From: Candidatus Giovannonibacteria bacterium RIFCSPHIGHO2_12_FULL_44_22
Lineage (GTDB): Bacteria; Patescibacteriota; Minisyncoccia; UBA11713; 2-01-FULL-45-33
Direction: 5' to 3'
Assembly (NCBI GenBank): GCA_001778695.1
Contig: MFHU01000012.1
Coordinates: forward strand, 1-60,676
DNA: 60,676 nt
The first letter of the stretch is position 1. Each line of letters starts with the position of its first letter. The translations under genes were made by a program, and so were the position numbers. The notes beneath the pieces are model-generated. The model saw only the letters and a list, made by a program, of their open reading frames with translations, had not been told where the DNA came from and ran no database searches. Positions 53,208 to 60,122 of this stretch are shown here, piece by piece.

Positions 53208-53894
53208 ATGTTAGTACAAACTTGGGGTGATGTTTTAGTGTTATCTTTCCAGCAACTTTGGGGCGGCGTGGTTGTTTTCGTGCCAAAACTCATAATCGCC
53301 TTGGTTGTTTTTATTATCGGCTGGATTATTGCCGTGGCTTTGGGAAAAGTCGTGGAGCAGATTATCAAGGCGCTTAAAGTGGATACGGCTCTTAAAAGCT
53401 TGGGCATGGAGGAACCTATTTCCCGCGCCGGAATGAAATTGGACTCCGGAGCGTTTATAGGCGCGCTCGTGCGGTGGTTCTTTATCTTGGTGTTTGTGCT
53501 GGCGGCTTTTGATGTCTTAGGCCTTTCACAGGTTACTGAATTTTTGCGCTCCGTGGTTCTTGCTTATATACCGCAAGTAATTGTGGCTGCGTTAATTTTG
53601 GTCGCGGCGGCTCTTTTGGCTGAAACCGTGAACAATGTGGTTCAAGGCAGCGCCCGGGCGGCGCATCTTCCTTCCGCCGGATTGTTGGGCGGAGTAGCCA
53701 AATGGTCAATTTGGATTTTTGCCATTCTGGCGGCGCTTTTCCAATTGGGAATCGCGGGTCCATTTGTGCAAACAATCTTCACGGCTTTTGTGGCAATGGT
53801 TGCTTTAGCTGGTGGCTTGGCTTTCGGCTTGGGAGGTAAAGAAGCGGCGTCCCGTTATCTTGAAAAACTGCGCTCGGATATATCTAACCGTTAA
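53208..53894 (+). CDS. Membrane protein of the conserved-TM-helix-repeat type (as found in the N-termini of mechanosensitive channel-like proteins)
   Basis: Hydrophobic helix pairs with similar spacing repeat four times. No soluble domain is present. Confidence 0.45.
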   Translation: MLVQTWGDVLVLSFQQLWGGVVVFVPKLIIALVVFIIGWIIAVALGKVVEQIIKALKVDTALKSLGMEEPISRAGMKLDSGAFIGALVRWFFILVFVLAAFDVLGLSQVTEFLRSVVLAYIPQVIVAALILVAAALLAETVNNVVQGSARAAHLPSAGLLGGVAKWSIWIFAILAALFQLGIAGPFVQTIFTAFVAMVALAGGLAFGLGGKEAASRYLEKLRSDISNR

Positions 53895-53920
53895 TCCGTT
53901 AATTTAGAAATTTCAAAATT

Positions 53921-53948
53921 AAAAACCCGCTATTTACAGTGGGTTTTT
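53921..53948 (+). terminator. Intrinsic terminator
   Basis: The hairpin is AAAAACCC-gctatttacagt-GGGTTTTT. Confidence 0.55.
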
Positions 53949-54024
53949 AATTTGTTAGTATAAAAGCCAGAATTTCAGTTCTCATTTTGGAAAAAATCAA
54001 AAAAAGAAAGAGGAGGATGAAGGG

Positions 54025-54294
54025 GTGAAAATTATTGAAAAAGGAAGGCATGTGGCAAAGCCGTGGTGGAAAAAATGGCTAGGAATAAACGGAACCAAGG
54101 AGTCCGCGGAGCTTCTTTGCGAGATATGCAAAACAAAATTTAAACTTCAACAAAATCGCGATACAACATTAATTAGGGCAGATTGTTACGATGAAAATTA
54201 CAGAATCATTTTCTATTTTATCCGCTGCCCGCATTGCACGCACATCAACAAATATGCCCGAGAGGCAGTTGAATCGGAAAACGAAATCGCTTAA
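54025..54294 (+). CDS. Small zinc-ribbon-like protein (89 aa)
   Basis: The start is GTG with an AGGAGGA SD. Cysteine pairs are CEIC...CPHC. Confidence 0.35.
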   Translation: MKIIEKGRHVAKPWWKKWLGINGTKESAELLCEICKTKFKLQQNRDTTLIRADCYDENYRIIFYFIRCPHCTHINKYAREAVESENEIA

Positions 54295-54301
54295 TTCTCC
54301 C

Positions 54302-54326
54302 AGCGGCCCAAATGGCCGCTTTTTTG
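54302..54326 (+). terminator. Intrinsic terminator
   Basis: The hairpin is AGCGGCC-caaat-GGCCGCT followed by T6. Confidence 0.65.
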
Positions 54327-54381
54327 TTTGTTTTACTCCAATAACTCAACGGCCGTCAAGACATTAGAGTAATTGTTTAAA

Positions 54382-54411
54382 TTTGACACGCGGTTTTTGA
54401 TTTGCTATGAA
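54382..54411 (+). promoter_or_regulatory. Cassette A promoter (near-consensus sigma-70 type)
   Basis: It has TTGACA (54382..54387), a 17-nt spacer and TATGAAT (54405..54411). The same element recurs at 56009..56038. Confidence 0.65.
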
Positions 54412-54426
54412 TGTTAATAGAGAAAA

Positions 54427-54496
54427 ACATAGTAGCTTATTCGCTAAGAATCCTTGCGCCGCAGATGATCGGGACTAAGACACATGCCGAAGGTGA
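54427..54496 (+). other. Cassette A leader segment homologous to 23S rRNA (counterpart of 58531..58598 in this window)
   Basis: In my manual alignment, GCGCCGCAGATGATCGGGACTAAGACACATGCCGAAGGTGAG matches 23S GCGCCGAAAATTATCGGGGCTAAGCAGAGTACCGAAGGTGAG at 32 of 42 positions. Weaker similarity extends about 28 nt further upstream. Confidence 0.7.
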
Positions 54497-54497
54497 G

Positions 54498-54518
54498 GAA
54501 TTGGTGCTTGAATTTTGG
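54498..54518 (+). repeat. Cassette A closing stem, 5' arm
   Basis: AATTGGTGCTTGAATTTTGGA is complementary to 55579..55599 over 21 bp, with one U-G pair. Confidence 0.8.
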
Positions 54519-54551
54519 AAAAAATAAAAAATTAGTTCATTGGAGGTGAAT

Positions 54552-54785
54552 ATGGCTCACAGAGATGATCTGGATAGAATCGAACAAGCAGTGCACAATG
54601 AGATCTTTTTCGAAGTGGTCTACAAGGAAATCGAGAAAAGAGGCGTGAACAGAAAAGATATACCGCAACACATTCATGTAAAACTTTTCAGAGAAGTGAA
54701 AGAGGTAACGAGAAGTCTGTCGGAAGAATTGCAATCGGCAATCTTTGAGATGACCAGAACGGGTGTAATGAAAGATTTTCCCTGA
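54552..54785 (+). CDS. Small ORF A1 (77 aa), unknown function
   Basis: A GGAGGTG SD lies 5 nt upstream of the ATG. The protein is helical and charged. Confidence 0.5.
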   Translation: MAHRDDLDRIEQAVHNEIFFEVVYKEIEKRGVNRKDIPQHIHVKLFREVKEVTRSLSEELQSAIFEMTRTGVMKDFP

Positions 54786-54802
54786 ACGAAAGGAGAACGG
54801 TC

Positions 54803-55108
54803 ATGGCGAAGAATAAAAAGAAATCTCGGAAATCGTTGGAAGGACTTTTTGCGGTCGCGGTTGCGAGATCTGGTGCGAGATCAAAAACGAAGAGAGTCGT
54901 AGACACTCAAAGTTTGATTCTCGCCAATGAAGATTTTGCAAAAGCTCTTGAAAGAGGCGAGAAGTGGGCCGTGGATCACTTACACAAAAGCGAAGAGTTG
55001 AACAACGGCAATTCGTGTGCCTTCGAACGAAAGTTCGATGGAGAGAAGCGACGCTGGTGTTCAAAATGTCCATTCCCTGATGGTTGCGTCATGTGTAATC
55101 TTAATTAA
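54803..55108 (+). CDS. Small ORF A2 (101 aa), basic N-terminus and C-terminal CxxC-x5-CxxC zinc knuckle
   Basis: It is preceded by the conserved AACGAAAGGAGAACGGTC cassette. It starts MAKNKKKSRKS and ends ...WCSKCPFPDGCVMCNLN. Confidence 0.55.
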   Translation: MAKNKKKSRKSLEGLFAVAVARSGARSKTKRVVDTQSLILANEDFAKALERGEKWAVDHLHKSEELNNGNSCAFERKFDGEKRRWCSKCPFPDGCVMCNLN

Positions 55109-55124
55109 CGAAAGGAGAACGGCC

Positions 55125-55280
55125 GTGGACAAAGAAACGGAAAAAATTTTCTATGGAGCATTGCAGCAAGTGGTTTCGAGACGGTGGGATGAAATCATGA
55201 GAAAGCGAAGGGTTCTTGCAGAAGGAGTTTGTGCGGCAATCCAACGGATGCGGGAGGAAAAAGAAAAACAACCGAAATGA
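55125..55280 (+). CDS. Small ORF A3 (51 aa), GTG start
   Basis: The same AACGAAAGGAGAACGGCC cassette lies directly upstream of the GTG at 55125. The longer ORF call from 55017 overlaps A2 in another frame. Confidence 0.4.
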   Translation: MDKETEKIFYGALQQVVSRRWDEIMRKRRVLAEGVCAAIQRMREEKEKQPK

Positions 55281-55305
55281 AAACAGTAACGAAAGGAGAA
55301 CAGTC

Positions 55306-55539
55306 ATGGGTATGAACGAATGCTATTTCCGTTTGCAACTGACAAAAAGCCTTCGCTTGGCAATCATCGAGGAACTAAACGGGAGAGGGTTTCCGGCAAA
55401 AATAGTAAATGACGAATTGGTGGTCGGCGAAGCGGAGAAGCATATAAAGTTTTCTGAAGATACCATCCAGGATGCAGTGGGATTAATAATTCAATCTACT
55501 GAACGCTTCCGTAGCGAACATGAAGATATCCGTTCCTAA
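55306..55539 (+). CDS. Small ORF A4 (77 aa), unknown function
   Basis: The AACGAAAGGAGAACAGTC cassette lies directly upstream of the ATG at 55306. Confidence 0.5.
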   Translation: MGMNECYFRLQLTKSLRLAIIEELNGRGFPAKIVNDELVVGEAEKHIKFSEDTIQDAVGLIIQSTERFRSEHEDIRS

Positions 55540-55578
55540 CTAAGAAAGGAGTAATTTGGGGAGCCTAATAAGTTCCCC

Positions 55579-55599
55579 TCCAAAATTCAAGCACCAGTT
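55579..55599 (+). repeat. Cassette A closing stem, 3' arm
   Basis: TCCAAAATTCAAGCACCAGTT is the reverse complement of the 5' arm. It is followed by TGGTAG, resembling the 23S sequence 3' of the helix-45 insertion. Confidence 0.8.
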
Positions 55600-55614
55600 G
55601 GTAGATTTTGACTC

Positions 55615-55638
55615 AAGCCCAAATATGGGCTTTTTTTT
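55615..55638 (+). terminator. Cassette A terminator
   Basis: The hairpin is AAGCCC-aaatat-GGGCTT followed by a T-run. Confidence 0.7.
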
Positions 55639-55677
55639 CACACTTTACAATATTCACAAAGGATATATGATTAAATT

Positions 55678-55980
55678 ATGGCTTTAACTAAAGAAGATCT
55701 ATCTCAAATCAGAGGATTACTTGATAACAAAATAGATGATTTTGCTAGAGTTGTGGCAAAAAGTTTTGAACAGGTGGCTACAAAAACCGACATAACCAGT
55801 TTAAAAAGCGATATCGCTAAATTAGAATTAGAAATAATGGAAATTAAAGAAAGAGTAATTTATATTGAACGAGATATTGCCGAAATTAGGAAGGGGTTGA
55901 TTTCTCGTATGGAACTTGAAGACATTTTGGCGCGGCTATCTTTGGTTGAGAAAAAATTAGGCATTGTCAGCGGAAAATAA
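55678..55980 (+). CDS. Coiled-coil protein (100 aa), unknown function
   Basis: It has heptad-like Leu/Ile/Glu/Lys periodicity throughout and lies between the two cassettes. Confidence 0.4.
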   Translation: MALTKEDLSQIRGLLDNKIDDFARVVAKSFEQVATKTDITSLKSDIAKLELEIMEIKERVIYIERDIAEIRKGLISRMELEDILARLSLVEKKLGIVSGK

Positions 55981-56008
55981 TTTGGAATATTGTTGCCACG
56001 GCTCGCTA

Positions 56009-56038
56009 TTGACGGCGGGTTTTTGATTTGCTATGAAT
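56009..56038 (+). promoter_or_regulatory. Cassette B promoter
   Basis: It has TTGACG, a 17-nt spacer (identical to cassette A except for 2 nt) and TATGAAT. Confidence 0.65.
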
Positions 56039-56053
56039 TTTAATAGAAAAAAA

Positions 56054-56123
56054 CATAGTAGCTTATTCGCTAAGAGTTTTTGCGCCGCAGATGATCGGGG
56101 CTAAATAGAGTACCGCAGGTGAG
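56054..56123 (+). other. Cassette B leader segment homologous to 23S rRNA
   Basis: GCGCCGCAGATGATCGGGGCTAAATAGAGTACCGCAGGTGAG matches the 23S segment at 36 of 42 positions by manual alignment. Confidence 0.75.
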
Positions 56124-56124
56124 G

Positions 56125-56145
56125 AATTGGTGCTTGAATTTTGGA
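56125..56145 (+). repeat. Cassette B closing stem, 5' arm
   Basis: It is identical to the cassette A 5' arm and pairs with 56837..56857 over 21 bp, with one G-U at a different position than in A. Confidence 0.8.
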
Positions 56146-56173
56146 TTAAAATTTTAGTTCTTTGGAGGTGAAT

Positions 56174-56416
56174 ATGGATAGGCTTGAAATTCAGGGAAAA
56201 ATTTTCCGCCTCGTTAATGGTTTGGTCGAAGAGCAAGGAAAGAAATGGGGGGATTTGCGTCGTGGACCGGAATTACGACTGACTATATGGGAGCTGGCAG
56301 ATGATTTAATCGAAGCTTGCGAGGAAGAAAGTTTGCCGGACAAAAAGCCGGAGGAGCAACTGGACCGTGGCCCCGAATTCTTAGCGAGAATCGAGGAGCG
56401 GGGCGGTAAATGGTAA
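56174..56416 (+). CDS. Small ORF B1 (80 aa), acidic, unknown function
   Basis: It has the same TTGGAGGTGAAT-ATG start context as A1, but the protein is unrelated to A1. Confidence 0.5.
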   Translation: MDRLEIQGKIFRLVNGLVEEQGKKWGDLRRGPELRLTIWELADDLIEACEEESLPDKKPEEQLDRGPEFLARIEERGGKW

Positions 56417-56432
56417 ACGAAAGGAGAACGTC

Positions 56433-56702
56433 ATGGCGAAGAAAATCAGAAAAACAGCGAATTGGAGAATAAGTGCAGAGGAACGAGATTGTGTAACGCA
56501 GAATCTCAGAAAGGCAGTGCATGATGTGTTCAACGCCGAGGTGAAAAACCTCAAGCTGAGGAAAGTCGATATCACAGCTTTGCAGAAACTGATGTTTGTT
56601 CAGTTTGTCGAGCGTGGAATTATTCGGCTCGTTGACGATTTCGTTTCTGTTGTAGAGATCGTTCTAAAGACAAGGAAGATATTTACTGGGGATTCCTCAT
56701 GA
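56433..56702 (+). CDS. Small ORF B2 (89 aa), unknown function
   Basis: The AACGAAAGGAGAACGTC cassette plus ATGGCGAAGAA matches the start context of A2. The remainder of the protein differs. Confidence 0.5.
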   Translation: MAKKIRKTANWRISAEERDCVTQNLRKAVHDVFNAEVKNLKLRKVDITALQKLMFVQFVERGIIRLVDDFVSVVEIVLKTRKIFTGDSS

Positions 56703-56836
56703 AAAATCACGAGTCGAATCCCCTCCAAATTTAGTTCGTTGGCCAAGCTGAGAAGAAAAGTGGAAATAATGGCGAGCTTCACGAAAACGACGAAAGGAGT
56801 ATTTGAGAAGCAGGCGGAGAGAAGCCCCTGTTTCTC

Positions 56837-56857
56837 TCCAAAATTCAAGCATCAATT
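56837..56857 (+). repeat. Cassette B closing stem, 3' arm
   Basis: TCCAAAATTCAAGCATCAATT is followed by GGTAG, as in cassette A. Confidence 0.8.
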
Positions 56858-56872
56858 GGTAGATTTTGACTC

Positions 56873-56895
56873 AAGCCCGCATAAGGGCTTTTTTC
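56873..56895 (+). terminator. Cassette B terminator
   Basis: The hairpin is AAGCCC-gcataa-GGGCTT followed by a T-run. The stem is conserved with cassette A while the loop differs. Confidence 0.7.
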
Positions 56896-56901
56896 TTTTT
56901 A

Positions 56902-56929
56902 CCCCCACACCAATGCATTGGTGTGGGGG
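56902..56929. terminator. 28-nt perfect GC-rich palindrome (second terminator or insulator) just upstream of the rRNA promoter
   Basis: CCCCCACACCAATGCATTGGTGTGGGGG is followed by TTTAT. Confidence 0.5.
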
Positions 56930-56944
56930 TTTATCCCCACCCTA

Positions 56945-56972
56945 TTGACTTCCAAAACCATGGGACTATAAT
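56945..56972 (+). promoter_or_regulatory. Candidate 23S rRNA promoter
   Basis: It has TTGACT (56945..56950), a 16-nt spacer and TATAAT (56967..56972), about 175 nt upstream of the mature 23S 5' end. Confidence 0.55.
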
Positions 56973-57411
56973 GGCATTACACAAACTATGTTAAACAAAT
57001 TCAACTTAAATAAGCCAACAAAGCGGGAACACTGTTAGGTCGTCTTAACTTGTATTCAAAATCCCGCCTACGGCGGGATTTTGAGTTCATAGCGCGTGCG
57101 AACTTTGACAAGATTAGTTAATTCGTAAGTGCATTTTCTAACAAGACGGTTATAAGGGCATATGGCGGATGGCTCGAGATAAGATGGGCGATGAAGGACG
57201 TGGCGTGCCTGCGATAAGCTTGGGGGAGGTGGCTAGCAACCTTTGATCCCAAGATTTCCGAATGGGGAAACCCCGCGCCGAGAAATCGGCGTGATCTTGC
57301 ATCTTAAATGGTGCCGGAAGCGAACCCGCTGAAGTAAAACATTTCAGTAAGCGGAGGAAAAGAAAAAAATATTTATTCCCTTAGTAGCGGCGAGCGAAAA
57401 GGGAGCAGCCC

Positions 57412-57540
57412 AGATCGTCAATGCTGCGCATTGACGCGCTGAAAACGCTGACTGGACGCTGACAGTCGCAGAATAAATTCTGCGTTAGTCTGCGTTTCTT
57501 CTGCGTAAATCGGCGCGCCACTGCGCAGCAGTGGCGAAGT
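57412..57540 (+). repeat. 129-nt structured intervening sequence, copy 1 (domain I, around the E. coli ~270 region)
   Basis: It is extra sequence relative to E. coli, between GCAGCCCAGA and the CTGGAAAGG block, and is homologous to 58597..58725. Confidence 0.75.
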
Positions 57541-57749
57541 TGTAAGTTTAATCCTGGTCTTTAATGATGGGGAGAATAAAAACATTAGCAGAACGGTCCT
57601 GGAAAGGCCGGCCAAAGAGGGTAATAGCCCCGTAAACGACAATGATTTTTTACTTTCTGGATTTTACTTGAGTACCTCGAAAAATGTATAGTTCGGGGGA
57701 ATCTGCCAGCACGAGCTGGTAAGGCTAAATACCATCTATCATCGATAGT

Positions 57750-57956: not shown

Positions 57957-58596
57957 CTGGGTGACGGCGTGCCTATTGAAGAATGAGCCAACGAGTTATC
58001 CAACACCTTTCGTCTAAGGGCACCTAGCCCGGAGGCACAGGGAAACCAAGTGTTAAAAGCGCGATTTTCTCCGACGTTACGTCGGAGAAAAAAAGATGTT
58101 GGATAGACCCGAAGCGAGATGAGCTTACCATGACCAGGGTGAACCTCGGAGAAATCCGGGGGGAGGCCCGAACCGTTTAGCCGTTCAAAACTATCGGATG
58201 AGTTGTGGTAAGGAGTGAAAAGCTAATCGAATCTCGTAATAGCTGGTTCTCTCCGAAATAGCTTTTCGGCTAGCGCCCGCCAAAAATTAGCAGGTAGAGC
58301 TACTAGATGGACTTGACAGGGAGAAATCTCGCGAGTCCAACTAAACTCCGAATGGCTAATCTATTTAGGCGGGTAGTCAGACCATGGGGGCTAAGCTCCA
58401 TCGGTCAAAAGGGAAACAGCCCAGATCTCAATCTAAGGTCCCTAAATTTCTGCTAAGTGCAAAGAAGGTGGTGAAGTTTCTTAAACAGCGAGGAGGTTGG
58501 CTTAGAAGCAGCCATCCTTTAAAGAGTGCGTAACAGCTCACTCGTCAAGAGACTTCGCGCCGAAAATTATCGGGGCTAAGCAGAGTACCGAAGGTG

Positions 58597-58725
58597 AGAT
58601 CGTCAGTGCATAGCACTGACGCGCGGAAAGCGCGGACTTGACGCAGACAGTCGCAGAAAATAATTCTGCATGTTCTGCGTTTATTCTGCGTAAATCGGCG
58701 CGCCAATACTATGCATTGGCGAGGT
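58597..58725 (+). repeat. 129-nt structured intervening sequence, copy 2 (helix-45 position)
   Basis: It is inserted after ACCGAAGGTG and before GTAGGAGAGCGTTCC. It shares the core GACAGTCGCAGAA...TTCTGCGTAAATCGGCGCGCCA with copy 1. Confidence 0.75.
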
Positions 58726-59453
58726 AGGAGAGCGTTCCAAATGCAGTGAAGCTCACGGCGCGAGCCGGGGTGGAGCGTTTGGAAGTGAGAATGTTGGCAC
58801 AAGTAACCGCAAGTTCGGTGAAATACCGTACCACCGAAAACCCAAGGTTTCCTTGGCAATGGAAATCAGCCAAGGGTTAGTCGGGCCTAAGCCAATGGCG
58901 AAAGCCGGAGGCGATGGACAGCTGGTTAATATTCCAGCACTGCGTATTGTTTTGACGGCAGGACGGAGCCTAGTATGTCGGGCGCGTTATTGGATTCGCG
59001 TTCATTGCGTAAGCGCGGGGCGGAGGAAAATCCCTGCCCAGCCCCGCCACGGCGGGGGCGCGCGAATGTTTTGAAAATTTTTGCAGCAATGCGAAAAAAT
59101 TCGGTAAAGCAGGCTTCCCAGAAAATTGTCTAAAATTATCAATACGCAACCGTACCGGAATCCGACACAGGTGGGTGGGAGGAGAACTCCCAGGTGAACG
59201 AGTGAAAGATCCCCAAGGAACTCGGCAAAAAAGCGGACGTAACTTAGGGATATGTCCTTCCCGCCAACATTAGATAATATCAAAATGAAGGCGGGACGCA
59301 GCGAAAGTACCCCTGGCGACTGTTTAACAAAAACACAGCTCCCTGCAAACTCGTAAGAGGAAGTATAGGGGGTGATGCCTGACCAATGCGAGAAGGTTAA
59401 CGCTGGCGTTCGCGTGGAGCAATCTGCGCGGGTGACTGGCCGAAGCCCTCGTC

Positions 59454-59485
<32 letters not shown>

Positions 59486-60122
59486 TCTGGAATTATTTTG
59501 AAATGATTCCGGAAGGACTAGGACTGTTATAGCGATACATATGTTAAACAAAAATAGCTGCCTCATTGTGTAGCAATACGCAATTGGTCCAAAATTACAT
59601 GGCTATATGCTGGAAACTCCGCAAGTATCCTCAAGTACTTTGTGTCCTAAACCAGGTTTGGGTCATAAAGTGAAAATCTGTGAGGTGGCGCGGACAATCA
59701 GCAGGAAACTGTAATATCTAAAGGAGGAAAAGAACATGAAAAATGACTGGGACGTACTTGTCCAAAGACGTTGGTGGATGTCTCGTGCAGACATCGACGT
59801 TCTTTACTACAAGTGGAAGACGGGACAAATTCAAGTTGGAGATGAAGAAATGCTGAGAGAGTTTCAGGCTGTTCGTTCTGAAGAAATAAAGATCGAAGCA
59901 GCCGAGATGCCAGAATCTCCAGCTGTCTTCATGTTCGGCGGAATGTTGGATGCAATGTTCGAGAAAACTCCAAATGGGCAAAAGTAGTTCAAGCCCTTCC
60001 TGTAAGGAAGGCGCAAAGAAACTCTTTGCCTCTTCCTTTAGGTATTACAGGATCCTCAGATACCATACGCCGTGCATCTCTAAGTAGATGAAGATATGGT
60101 ACTTCGCCCCAAGGAAGCGAAC
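59486..60122 (+). mobile_element. Group I intron in 23S rRNA (between CCUAAGGU and AGCGAAAUUCC, near E. coli position ~1931)
   Basis: It interrupts a universally conserved exon sequence. Four core-like elements are present: P-like TGCTGGAAA (59608..59616), Q-like AATCAGCAGG (59696..59705), R-like TCAGATACCATACG (60056..60069) and S-like AAGATATGGTAC (60091..60102). A P8-like hairpin CATCT-ctaagt-AGATG is also present. The 3' boundary is uncertain by a few nt. Confidence 0.75.
59736..59987 (+). CDS. Intron-encoded small ORF (83 aa), not a recognisable homing endonuclease
   Basis: An AAGGAGG SD lies 8 nt upstream of the ATG. The ORF sits in the loop closed by a 20-bp stem (59709..59728 with 60031..60050). 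No LAGLIDADG, GIY-YIG, HNH or His-Cys motif is visible. Confidence 0.5.
   Translation: MKNDWDVLVQRRWWMSRADIDVLYYKWKTGQIQVGDEEMLREFQAVRSEEIKIEAAEMPESPAVFMFGGMLDAMFEKTPNGQK

Follow-up and report, generated by a model that had tools for sequence, protein, structure and literature searches.

We suggest that the short element repeated between small open reading frames (ORFs) just upstream of a 23S rRNA gene in Candidatus Giovannonibacteria is probably a Shine-Dalgarno (SD) translation-initiation module that also bounds exchangeable ORF cassettes, in polycistronic RNAs derived from a 23S rRNA intervening sequence (IVS). The window, i.e. the whole stretch of DNA analysed, is 60,676 nucleotides long, and all features given below lie on its forward strand. 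The exact 14-mer AACGAAAGGAGAAC occurs in it only at 54785, 55107, 55288 and 56416, all within 1.7 kb. Each copy bridges the stop codon of the preceding ORF, or a point just past it, to the next start codon (ATG at 54803, GTG at 55125, ATG at 55306 and ATG at 56433). The first-pass annotation had described a 20-22 nt element at these junctions, and it is real: the full copies are AACGAAAGGAGAACGGTCATGG at 54785..54806, whose first base is overlapped by the TGA stop of ORF A1; AACGAAAGGAGAACGGCCGTGG at 55107..55128, with the GTG start; AACGAAAGGAGAACAGTCATGG at 55288..55309; and AACGAAAGGAGAACGTCATGG at 56416..56436, where the spacer is shorter by one nucleotide. When up to two mismatches to AACGAAAGGAGAAC were allowed, six matches were found, whereas 100 shuffles averaged 0.52 and never exceeded 3. 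The degenerate copies proposed to precede the 3' stem arms were recovered as GAAAGGAG at 55544 and 56792, both directly 5' of a hairpin and a 3' arm. This 8-mer occurs six times on the forward strand of the window, always within the two transcription units described below; in relatives it occurs nine times in 4.4 kb of IVS versus six times in 73 kb of flanking DNA (both strands).

The module is made up of an upstream stop codon, an extended SD core, (AC)GAAAGGAG, a spacer that usually reads AACNGTC, and an ATG or GTG followed by G, with the coding sequence often beginning Met-Ala-Lys. It is the only sequence common to the otherwise unrelated cargo ORFs. The starts of ORFs A2 and B2 have ATGGCGAAGAA in common and diverge beyond it, in agreement with the first reading. 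The 14-22 nt identity among the window copies is more than SD selection alone needs, and could reflect recent duplication or gene conversion.

GAAAGGAG is complementary over 8 nt to the canonical 16S rRNA 3' tail CUCCUUUC, from which the host's own tail may differ, and the spacer between it and the start codon is constant at 6-7 nt. Two initiation regions are conserved, GGAGGTGA at the first position only and GAAAGGAG at the other positions; each is complementary, over 8 nt, to one of two neighbouring segments of the canonical tail UCACCUCCUUUC, with spacers of 5-7 nt. The junctions appear unstructured, folding no better than shuffled sequences (z +0.1 to +1.0). Complementarity, constant spacing and absence of structure together support the shared translational site that had been offered as one reading of the junctions and, taking the tail to be canonical, we infer that the element acts as an extended SD translation-initiation site. 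A scan of the window and of the five largest related loci found no 16S gene, and about half of the 16S genes of Parcubacteria are reported to have no detectable anti-SD motif (PMC9297842).

Is the motif simply the generic ribosome-binding context of this genome, as the first-pass annotation warned it might be? AGGAG is the universal SD core, and a genome-wide scan with the full junction pattern returned roughly 100 isolated, SD-like chance matches in unrelated bacteria, with two true relatives only. However, the 60 kb hold no further copies, 43 of 49 host genes (rplJ and rplL included) have no SD of 5 nt or more, and in relatives the motif is concentrated in IVSs; for the window this explanation is already refuted, and we give it almost no weight. 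The remaining 6/49 host genes with an SD-like match of at least 5 nt compare with a background of 5.7% (P about 0.06), and most host gene starts have an A/T-rich or TATAAT-like sequence immediately upstream. Predicted anti-SD duplexes average -2.2 kcal/mol in host genes, compared with -10.6 to -11.8 in the six cargo ORFs. The SD-poor host, in a group where some Parcubacteria are reported to lack the anti-SD (PMC9297842), also gives some room to the idea that an RNA-binding regulator (CsrA-like or a cargo protein) recognises the GGA repeats, the RNA being mainly a regulated molecule or a sponge. Each RNA carries 3-5 repeated A(N)GGA sites, and the terminal copy precedes no ORF. However, the ORFs, which are under purifying selection, exactly fill the stretches between motifs, the distance to the start codon is fixed, the first-position motif is also an anti-SD complement, and no regulator was identified. 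We therefore consider regulator binding improbable, and prefer an initiation module.

The motifs fall in two tandem transcription units, A (54383-55640) and B (56009-56896), each with the order promoter, 23S rRNA-fragment leader, 21-nt 5' arm, small ORFs, degenerate motif, hairpin, 3' arm and terminator. The putative promoter of unit A (54383..54412) consists of TTGACA (54383-54388), a 17-nt spacer and TATGAAT (54406-54412), in a block that is conserved in unit B and is not 23S-like; that of unit B (56009..56038) has TTGACG, a 17-nt spacer and TATGAAT. The unit A leader (54434..54498) is a homologue of the part of 23S rRNA domain II that lies just 5' of helix 45, with BLAST matches to the 23S genes of loci L140, L146 and L143, and the unit B leader (56060..56124) is likewise a 23S rRNA-derived fragment by BLAST. 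In isolation the leader does not fold stably (z +0.2 to +0.9), as would be expected of a detached 23S fragment and not of a riboswitch. The unit A 5' arm (AATTGGTGCTTGAATTTTGGA, 54499..54519) belongs to an inverted repeat and forms the 5' strand of an extended helix 45, and the unit B 5' arm (56125..56145) pairs with its 3' arm in the MFE fold of the whole unit. An AT-rich linker and type-1 initiation region follow in unit A (54520..54554, TTGGAGGTGAATATG), as they do after the 5' arm in rRNA-borne IVSs, and TTGGAGGTGAATATG also precedes ORF B1.

Downstream of its ORFs, unit A has a terminal degenerate motif and hairpin (55542..55578, AGAAAGGAGTAAT; hairpin 55558-55578) of a type that recurs in the rRNA-borne IVSs L139 and L140. 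Then come the 3' arm (55579..55599, TCCAAAATTCAAGCACCAGTT, with one U.G wobble) and a trailer, common with unit B, that runs into an intrinsic terminator (55600..55640; stem 55615-55632 plus a T run). The terminal motif and hairpin of unit B (56790..56836, ACGAAAGGAGTAT; hairpin 56805-56836), the hairpin having a near-identical twin in the rRNA-borne IVSs L134/L128 and L135, are followed by the 3' arm (56837..56857, TCCAAAATTCAAGCATCAATT, with one G.U wobble) and by a trailer and intrinsic terminator (56858..56896; stem 56873-56890). Before them, a non-coding stretch at 56703..56789 contains TCCCCTCCAAATTTAGTTCGTTGG as a repeat and resembles a 3' hairpin end joined to a 5' linker; it is possibly the scar of a decayed cassette or of a unit fusion. 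A seemingly conserved peptide running through the 3' arm of both units (including PKFKHQLVDFDSS) was rejected as coding, since loop lengths differ among the rRNA-borne copies and with them the frame relative to the arm; in L139 and L140, reading through the 3' arm stops at TTGGTAG. Rfam held no family for leader, arms or trailer at gathering or permissive thresholds, and a scan of viral contigs with an arm 16-mer gave single chance matches only.

The origin of these parts is seen in relatives. Eleven distinct related sequences, drawn from MAGs of Ca. Giovannonibacteria and from groundwater metagenomes, have these arms, linker, motif and hairpin inside the 23S rRNA gene, at helix 45, the classical IVS site. 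Arms and motif lie inside the 23S gene in L043, L118 and L128; in L118 the Rfam LSU match breaks off near model position 1205, at the start of the insert; placement at helix 45 was seen in L043, L118, L128 and L134-L148; and all metagenome matches to the 3' arm (15/15) are inside 23S genes. The arms form 21 of 21 pairs in 8/8 sequences, with two compensatory changes and two wobbles, and they close the MFE folds of one rRNA-borne IVS and of unit B. A long helix-45 stem is the kind that RNase III cuts to remove an IVS, and here the rRNA helix is extended by a perfect 21-bp stem. This homology identifies the leader as a piece of 23S rRNA, the arms as an extended helix 45 and the unit as a free-standing 23S IVS derivative. 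Both window units are placed upstream of the 23S start at 57142, with their own promoter and terminator, and keep about 65 nt of 23S flank plus TTGGTAG on the 3' side. This retained flank, together with a position outside the gene, makes them derivatives of the IVS family rather than members by position. Neither a group I nor a group II intron was matched in Rfam between 54300 and 57000, even at E up to 5.

Each of the two leaders matches a different foreign 23S type, and not the resident 23S. The unit A leader is 89-90% identical to the 23S type of L135-L139 and 69% to the window's own, and the unit B leader 87% identical to the L043/L118 type and 76% to the window's own. The syntenic relatives L140 and L147 are without the region 53888-57076, and five independent contigs have the window's arrangement. 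As part of the explanation we favour, two arrays would have left the rRNA gene and come to lie in a lineage-specific insertion of roughly 3 kb just upstream, each array with a sigma-70-type promoter.

Unit A carries four cargo ORFs. A1 (77 aa, 54552..54785) is a predicted two-helix hairpin protein (AF2 pLDDT 79) whose model has no fold match in the PDB; it has six homologues at 54-91% identity, and the family is exemplified by the peptide EMTRTGVMKDFP. A2 (101 aa, 54803..55108) ends in a C-terminal CxxC-x5-CxxC and shares 65% identity with the single ORF that the rRNA-borne IVS carries in L140/L147. A2 might be a zinc-knuckle or HNH protein; its single-sequence model (pLDDT 48) was unusable. 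A3 (51 aa, 55125..55280) is weakly similar to the second ORF of L118, and A4 (77 aa, 55306..55539) has no family matches. In unit B, B1 (80 aa) lies at 56174..56416 and B2 (89 aa) at 56433..56702, the latter an ORFan for which a protein search finds only itself. Searches with A2 and B2 returned near-identical copies or the query only; the A2-like ORF inside the L140 23S gene was missed, perhaps because ORFs within rRNA genes often go uncalled. A profile search of 1.8 billion representatives added two hits, of which P0009 is a true remote homologue and the other a coiled-coil false positive, and no cargo ORF had a significant match in Pfam, PHROGs, PADLOC or NCBIfam. None of 14 cargo ORFs had any Pfam match, to S23p/23S_rRNA_IVP (PF05635) or otherwise, at E up to 0.5-1, and the two-helix model of A1 differs from the four-helix bundle of S23p, which places it outside that family. 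The dN/dS values, 0.08-0.54 in the A1 family (synonymous sites saturated), 0.23 for A2 and 0.14, indicate that cargo ORFs are under purifying selection and hence real genes, with predicted protein products.

The cargo varies between relatives. The number of small ORFs in an rRNA-borne insert ranges from one to four or more, and they represent at least eight sequence families, so that the further cassettes with different cargo anticipated by the first-pass annotation do exist. Members of the A1 family are found in six downstream situations: followed by A2 (the window and L152), by a 47-aa ORF (L118), a 94-aa ORF (L136 and L133), a 72-aa ORF (L150) or a 57-aa ORF (L151), or by nothing (L134). 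In the L132/L133 population one copy lies beside gyrA and may run on into a 23S 3' half. The A2-like ORF is first and alone in L140, second in the window, and comes after an A1 homologue in L152, i.e. cargo order and content vary while the junction stays constant, as had been predicted. Because the homology between arrays breaks at module edges, the module also appears to be a site of cassette recombination or conversion; we infer recombination at the motif from breakpoints in a dozen loci.

The same variation bears on whether the motif is a relic of tandem duplication, in which one SD-plus-ORF unit was duplicated and the ORFs diverged, with the junctions kept by descent or gene conversion and no exchange. 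Several cargo ORFs do have a loose pattern of helix, basic/Gly loop and helix; a profile-profile alignment sets KRGV..IP.H.H of the A1 family against HRVG.MPS.AHH of the L141 family; and A3 and the second and fourth ORFs of L118 begin MDEK or VDKE. However, the probability that hhalign assigns to that alignment is only 11%, BLAST between cargo ORFs is mostly negative, A2 is of a different, Cys-rich type, and we rejected common paralogy of all cargo ORFs as weak. Six downstream situations for one family and A2-like ORFs at different positions require rearrangement beyond divergence in place, and the retention of the motif where synonymous sites are saturated argues for selection on it. Duplication without exchange is therefore unlikely in our view, although it deserves some weight.

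If exchange occurred, a dedicated recombination system might be responsible, the motif being an integron attC-like site or the target of a homing nuclease. The array-like layout and variable cargo would suit such a system, a GIY-YIG ORF adjoins the ectopic array L151, and other 23S insertions of the same genomes carry LAGLIDADG genes (PMC11270868). However, neither hairpins nor inverted repeats form at the junctions, neither the cargo ORFs nor the called genes within 10 kb include an integrase, recombinase or nuclease domain (LAGLIDADG, GIY-YIG or HNH), no attI was found, and the content and spacing of the motif are those of a ribosome-binding site. A dedicated system is thus very improbable. 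The analogy with gene cassettes drawn in the first-pass annotation, which had itself seen no integrase or attC-like structure, holds for variable cargo between constant junctions and finds no support as to an integron-like mechanism; what it missed is the context, a derivative of a 23S rRNA IVS. Integron arrays are likewise made of short, mostly unrelated, promoterless ORFs of variable content with a recurring short element between them, but the recurring element here is an unstructured ribosome-binding site and not an attC hairpin, no attC inverted repeats being reported at the junctions, and the arrays lie in, or come from, an rRNA helix.

For decades, 23S IVSs have been regarded as short selfish spacers, and the few ORFs in them (S23p) are not known to be expressed or to have a function. 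Brown et al. reportedly described rRNA insertion sequences of CPR bacteria in 2015. The helix-45 IVSs of Salmonella, Campylobacter, Leptospira and Coxiella burnetii share with the relatives' inserts the site, a long perfect stem and the possibility of an ORF, and, as here, are patchy among close relatives, with different IVS types at one site. In contrast, the Giovannonibacteria inserts have up to four or more ORFs, each with a strong conserved SD module, from at least eight unrelated small-protein families of which none is S23p/PF05635, as well as a terminal SD-like site with a hairpin and promoter-driven copies outside the rRNA gene. The C. burnetii IVS, the only ORF-carrying one at helix 45 to have been studied well, is 428 nt long, is removed by RNase III and has one S23p ORF (PMC4990558, PMC2801512); it is quickly degraded and its ORF is apparently untranslated (PMC4990558). 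That ORF has no functional ribosome-binding site and is decaying, whereas the Giovannonibacteria cargo is under purifying selection. Tsurumaki et al. (2024), working on the same host group, reported short non-intron insertions at classical IVS sites of CPR bacteria and, in addition, some insertions of 500-1,000 bp to which they assigned no function, beside group I and II introns and LAGLIDADG and GIY-YIG genes; only ORFs with Pfam domains were annotated, and multi-ORF, SD-punctuated helix-45 inserts or ectopic copies are not described in that survey (PMC11270868).

Strong SD sites in SD-poor genomes have precedents, with a few genes having an unusually long SD, as here. The rpsU gene of Flavobacterium is such an exception (PMC13000453, PMC7797042). 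The terminal copy in each unit is like a STAB-SD in being an SD-like site that precedes no ORF. STAB-SD stabiliser elements include GAAAGGAGG of B. thuringiensis cryIIIA. For the present sites, an autoregulatory logic or a stabiliser role would be conjecture.

We therefore consider it likely that small-ORF cassettes carrying the module belong to a 23S helix-45 IVS family of Ca. Giovannonibacteria. In relatives the array is closed by the 21-bp helix-45 extension, and an RNase III cut would excise it. Whether excised or nascent, the RNA would act as a compact polycistronic mRNA that runs from the stem through an AT-rich linker and the SD-ORF units to a final SD-like site and a 3' hairpin. The window arrays would have moved out of the rRNA gene and gained their own promoter and terminator while keeping 23S flank and both arms, and cassettes would have been recombined or converted between arrays at the module. 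More tentatively, the 23S gene may double as an expression vehicle, a possibility we rate well below the module itself. The insert would then be excised as a stem-capped polycistronic mRNA made at rRNA-level rates, with strong-SD small ORFs. Cassettes would be exchanged with no dedicated recombinase, both inside a lineage and across lineages, between copies in the rRNA gene and free-standing ones, by recombination at the module and rRNA-like flanks. A strong SD in an SD-independent system could also limit translation to a particular ribosome state.

By this account, a helix-45 IVS family would carry arrays of selected small-protein genes with near-optimal ribosome-binding modules in an SD-poor lineage, and these arrays would have given rise to promoter-driven copies elsewhere in the genome. 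It offers a testable case of protein genes expressed from an rRNA precursor, such expression being predicted, and of cassette-like gene shuffling without need for an integrase. It also suggests a reservoir of small proteins seemingly overlooked by annotation, and bears on translation initiation in CPR bacteria reported to have lost SD usage.

Four exact copies of the 14-mer AACGAAAGGAGAAC, at 54785, 55107, 55288 and 56416, are the only ones in the 60,676-nt window; allowing up to two mismatches raises the count to six, where shuffled sequence gives 0.5 on average. Every exact copy begins at or just past a stop codon and runs into the next start codon, the extended repeat around it spanning 20-22 nt, and ATGGCGAAGAA is common to A2 and B2, cargo ORFs of two separate arrays (units A and B). 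A degenerate form, GAAAGGAGTA, lies at 55544 and 56792, each time immediately 5' of a hairpin and 3' stem arm. The motif coordinates in the first-pass annotation all proved correct. Its worry that the motif might be simply the generic Shine-Dalgarno (SD) context of this genome can be set aside for this window, because SD-like matches in front of host genes barely exceed the random level and the duplexes predicted for cargo ORFs are far stronger. Among 49 long ORFs of the window, only six have a match of at least 5 nt within the 25 nt before the start (against 5.7% at random positions; P about 0.06), and most starts adjoin A/T-rich sequence or a TATAAT-like box. The predicted duplex with the canonical anti-SD averaged -2.2 kcal/mol for host genes and was -10.6 to -11.8 kcal/mol for the six cargo ORFs. 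Neither rplJ nor rplL of the window uses the motif. Across 1-53900, most host genes lack an SD and many carry a TATAAT-like box no more than about 10 nt from the start codon, which suggests leaderless or SD-independent initiation. A coiled-coil ORF between the units (55678-55980) fits this host pattern: its TTTACA and TATGAT are 16 nt apart, and the latter stops 7 nt short of the ATG.

Units A (54383-55640; four ORFs of 77, 101, 51 and 77 aa) and B (56009-56896; two ORFs of 80 and 89 aa) stand in tandem, with both ends 86-89% identical and unrelated middles. Each starts with a promoter (TTGAC(A/G), 17-nt spacer, TATGAAT) and a conserved leader; the 5' arm (21 nt, AATTGGTGCTTGAATTTTGGA) follows, and an AT-rich linker separates it from the first initiation region, TTGGAGGTGAATATG. 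The cargo ORFs come next, joined to one another by the motif, and after the last of them lie the degenerate motif and hairpin, the 3' arm, whose sequence complements the 5' arm, and a short trailer common to both units that leads into an intrinsic terminator. The A/B arrangement recurs in five independent contigs from other samples. Within unit B, at 56703-56789, TCCCCTCCAAATTTAGTTCGTTGG resembles the terminal part of a 3' hairpin or arm joined to a 5' linker in which TTGGAGG has decayed, and is followed by ATGGCGAGC; the loss of a cassette or the fusion of two arrays may have left this scar. Upstream, 53933-54320 holds an 89-aa zinc-ribbon-like ORF (54025-54294) with its own terminator and a strong SD (GAGGAGGA); its 5' UTR includes ATTTTGGAAAAAATCAAAAA, which differs from the arm-end and linker sequence of unit A at one of 20 positions. 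This stretch resembles a third unit, further decayed, in the roughly 3-kb insertion that also contains units A and B. The near-identical strain contig L021 has three instead of four exact matches to the unit B 5'-arm 14-mer, and therefore a variant in its equivalent of that arm.

Where these parts came from is indicated by their relatives. Apart from about 100 unrelated single matches, a scan for the full junction pattern in one genome per species picked up two true relatives, each a Ca. Giovannonibacteria MAG, and in both the leader, arms, motif and hairpin lie inside a 23S rRNA gene, in the order ...GCAGCCATCCTTTAAAGAGTGCGTAACAGCTCACTCGCTAAGAGACCTTGCGCCGCAGATGATCGGGG...GGTGAGGAATTAGTGCTTGAATTTTGG (ORFs) CCAAAATTCAAGCACTAATTGGTAGGAGAGCGTTC... 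The Rfam LSU match to L118, a related locus, ends near model position 1205, where the insert starts; by E. coli 23S numbering this is helix 45, the classical site of intervening sequences (IVSs). Since the same parts lie inside a 23S gene in the MAG relatives, the leader of the window units is a torn-out piece of 23S rRNA and the arms extend helix 45. Scanning metagenomes with the 3' arm yielded 15 loci, all inside 23S genes. They represent nine distinct inserts, 319-664 nt long, that have arms, linker and initiation regions in common with the window units and, in most cases, the terminal motif and hairpin too. All 21 arm pairs are kept across eight distinct sequences, including two compensatory double changes (U-A to C-G in L134, G-C to A-U in L043), and each window arm pair has one G.U wobble compatible only with + strand RNA. 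The arm stem closes the minimum-energy fold of a whole rRNA-borne insert and of unit B.

Units A and B are ectopic copies. The resident 23S gene of the window (from 57142) carries at the helix-45 site a different, non-coding insert of about 130 nt (58597-58728), whereas L145, with a 23S 5' flank 100% identical to that of the window over 117 nt, has an ORF-bearing insert there. In the syntenic relatives L140 and L147, the MscS-like gene almost directly abuts the 23S gene and the equivalent of 53888-57076 is missing. The 23S-like part of the unit A leader shares 89-90% identity with the L135-L139 23S type and that of unit B 87% with the L043/L118 type, compared with only 69-76% for either leader against the resident 23S. 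Because the leaders match two foreign 23S types and not the resident one, despite a promoter-proximal boundary common to both, units A and B are mosaics, resulting from sequence exchange with rRNA-borne inserts of foreign origin. Two non-coding inserts in the resident gene, each about 125 nt long, are homologous at 84% identity (57405-57560, near the 5' end, and 58590-58735, at helix 45), and their first hairpins show compensatory changes (GTCAATGC..GCATTGAC vs GTCAGTGC..GCACTGAC); one type of non-coding IVS thus occupies two sites of this gene. A further insert of about 640 nt (59487-60120) follows CCTAAGGT, near position 1931 in E. coli 23S numbering; it contains an 83-aa ORF (59736-59987) with AAAGGAGGAAAAGAACATG just before it. 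Neither Pfam nor, at gathering score, the Rfam group I intron families gave a match.

The cargo ORFs are genuine genes. Six homologues of the A1 family in the databases share the invariant blocks HRDD, KRGV.RK..P.H.H and EMTRTG.MK.FP, and dN/dS is 0.08-0.54 for A1, with synonymous sites saturated, 0.23 for A2 vs L140, and 0.14 for L141 vs L145. At sequence level there are at least eight cargo families, a profile-profile test for deep paralogy was weak (11% probability), and none of the ORFs had a match in Pfam, PHROG, PADLOC or NCBIfam. A1 is modelled as a two-helix hairpin, for which no PDB match was found. P0009, a remote A1 homologue (E 7e-5), is a stand-alone gene with GAAAGGAGAACGGTTATG in front.

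In comparisons between arrays, similarity stops at the motif edges. Members of the A1 family are followed by an A2-type ORF in the window and L152, a 47-aa ORF in L118, a 94-aa ORF in L136 and L133, a 72-aa ORF in L150, a 57-aa ORF in L151, and directly by the terminal hairpin in L134/L128, while the A2-type ORF, second in the window array, is the sole ORF of L140, where the motif directly follows the linker. Variable cargo behind a constant junction is seen across loci, in the six different successors of A1 and the changed position of the A2-type ORF. Arrays outside rRNA genes lie downstream of gyrA, serS and gltX, some with a 3'-arm remnant. In two assemblies (L132 3500-3926 and L133 1-786), a promoter downstream of gyrA precedes an A1 homologue and the 94-aa ORF, then the hairpin, the 3' arm and a stretch of genuine 23S 3' sequence that is at least 120 nt long; a 5' arm is missing upstream. 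Nearly the same ORFs lie within an intact 23S gene in L136/L138. Either a second 23S copy, split or partial, is present here, or the short-read assemblies are chimeric across the common ORFs. At L149 130-460, a promoter, GAAAGGAGAACGGTTATG and the P0009 gene lie downstream of a gltX-like gene, identified by reading its C-terminal sequence. In L150 (415-1108) an A1 homologue, the 72-aa ORF and a terminator are inserted between an L149-type promoter and a P0009-like gene, with the repeat TTTTTG(C/T)TATTCTTA(C)TTAT on both flanks. A GIY-YIG domain ORF (L151 1382-1642) lies directly downstream of an ectopic array with a terminal 3'-arm remnant. An antisense 53-aa ORF in another 23S insertion (L137 2292-2083, minus strand; also L143) adjoins a LAGLIDADG gene and has its own TTGACA promoter, initiation region TAACGAAAGGAGTTCCTATG and terminator.

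Insertions at IVS sites of CPR rRNA genes, including long ones, have already been catalogued, the long ones with no known function (PMC11270868). Known ORF-bearing helix-45 IVSs carry a single S23p ORF. Neither that catalogue nor other literature that we found by searching describes multi-ORF arrays punctuated by a conserved SD module, cargo drawn from many families of small proteins, evidence that cassettes are exchanged, or promoter-driven ectopic copies keeping rRNA flanks and arms.

Twenty initiation regions of this kind give the consensus aacGAAAGGAGAAc.gt.aTGg, with a spacer of 6-7 nt in 19 and 5 nt in one. Over 8 nt each, the two initiation types, GGAGGTGA and GAAAGGAG, complement neighbouring stretches of the canonical 16S tail UCACCUCCUUUC, a correspondence that would be hard to explain otherwise than by SD pairing. 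No 16S gene was found in the window or in the related loci scanned, and an anti-SD motif was detected in only 48% of Parcubacteria 16S genes in a survey of CPR ribosomes (PMC9297842). The junctions fold no better than shuffled sequence and are therefore open sites, not attC-like or RNase III hairpins; the resemblance to gene-cassette systems remarked on initially does not extend to an attC-like structure, and the alternative of a shared translational site agrees with both the tail complementarity and the unstructured junctions. Since the motif has been kept while synonymous sites of the adjoining genes are saturated, it appears to be under selection itself. We conclude that it would serve as an extended SD module for initiation, placed immediately after each stop codon; the terminal SD-like site may be a stabiliser, or a boundary that was left over. 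RNase III could excise the insert at the 21-bp stem, by analogy with helix-45 IVSs already known (PMC4990558); the Coxiella IVS RNA is short-lived and its ORF apparently untranslated (PMC4990558). We suggest that the module would allow independent initiation or re-initiation on a polycistronic RNA, and that it is likely also the crossover point between cassettes, because it is the only homology that they share.
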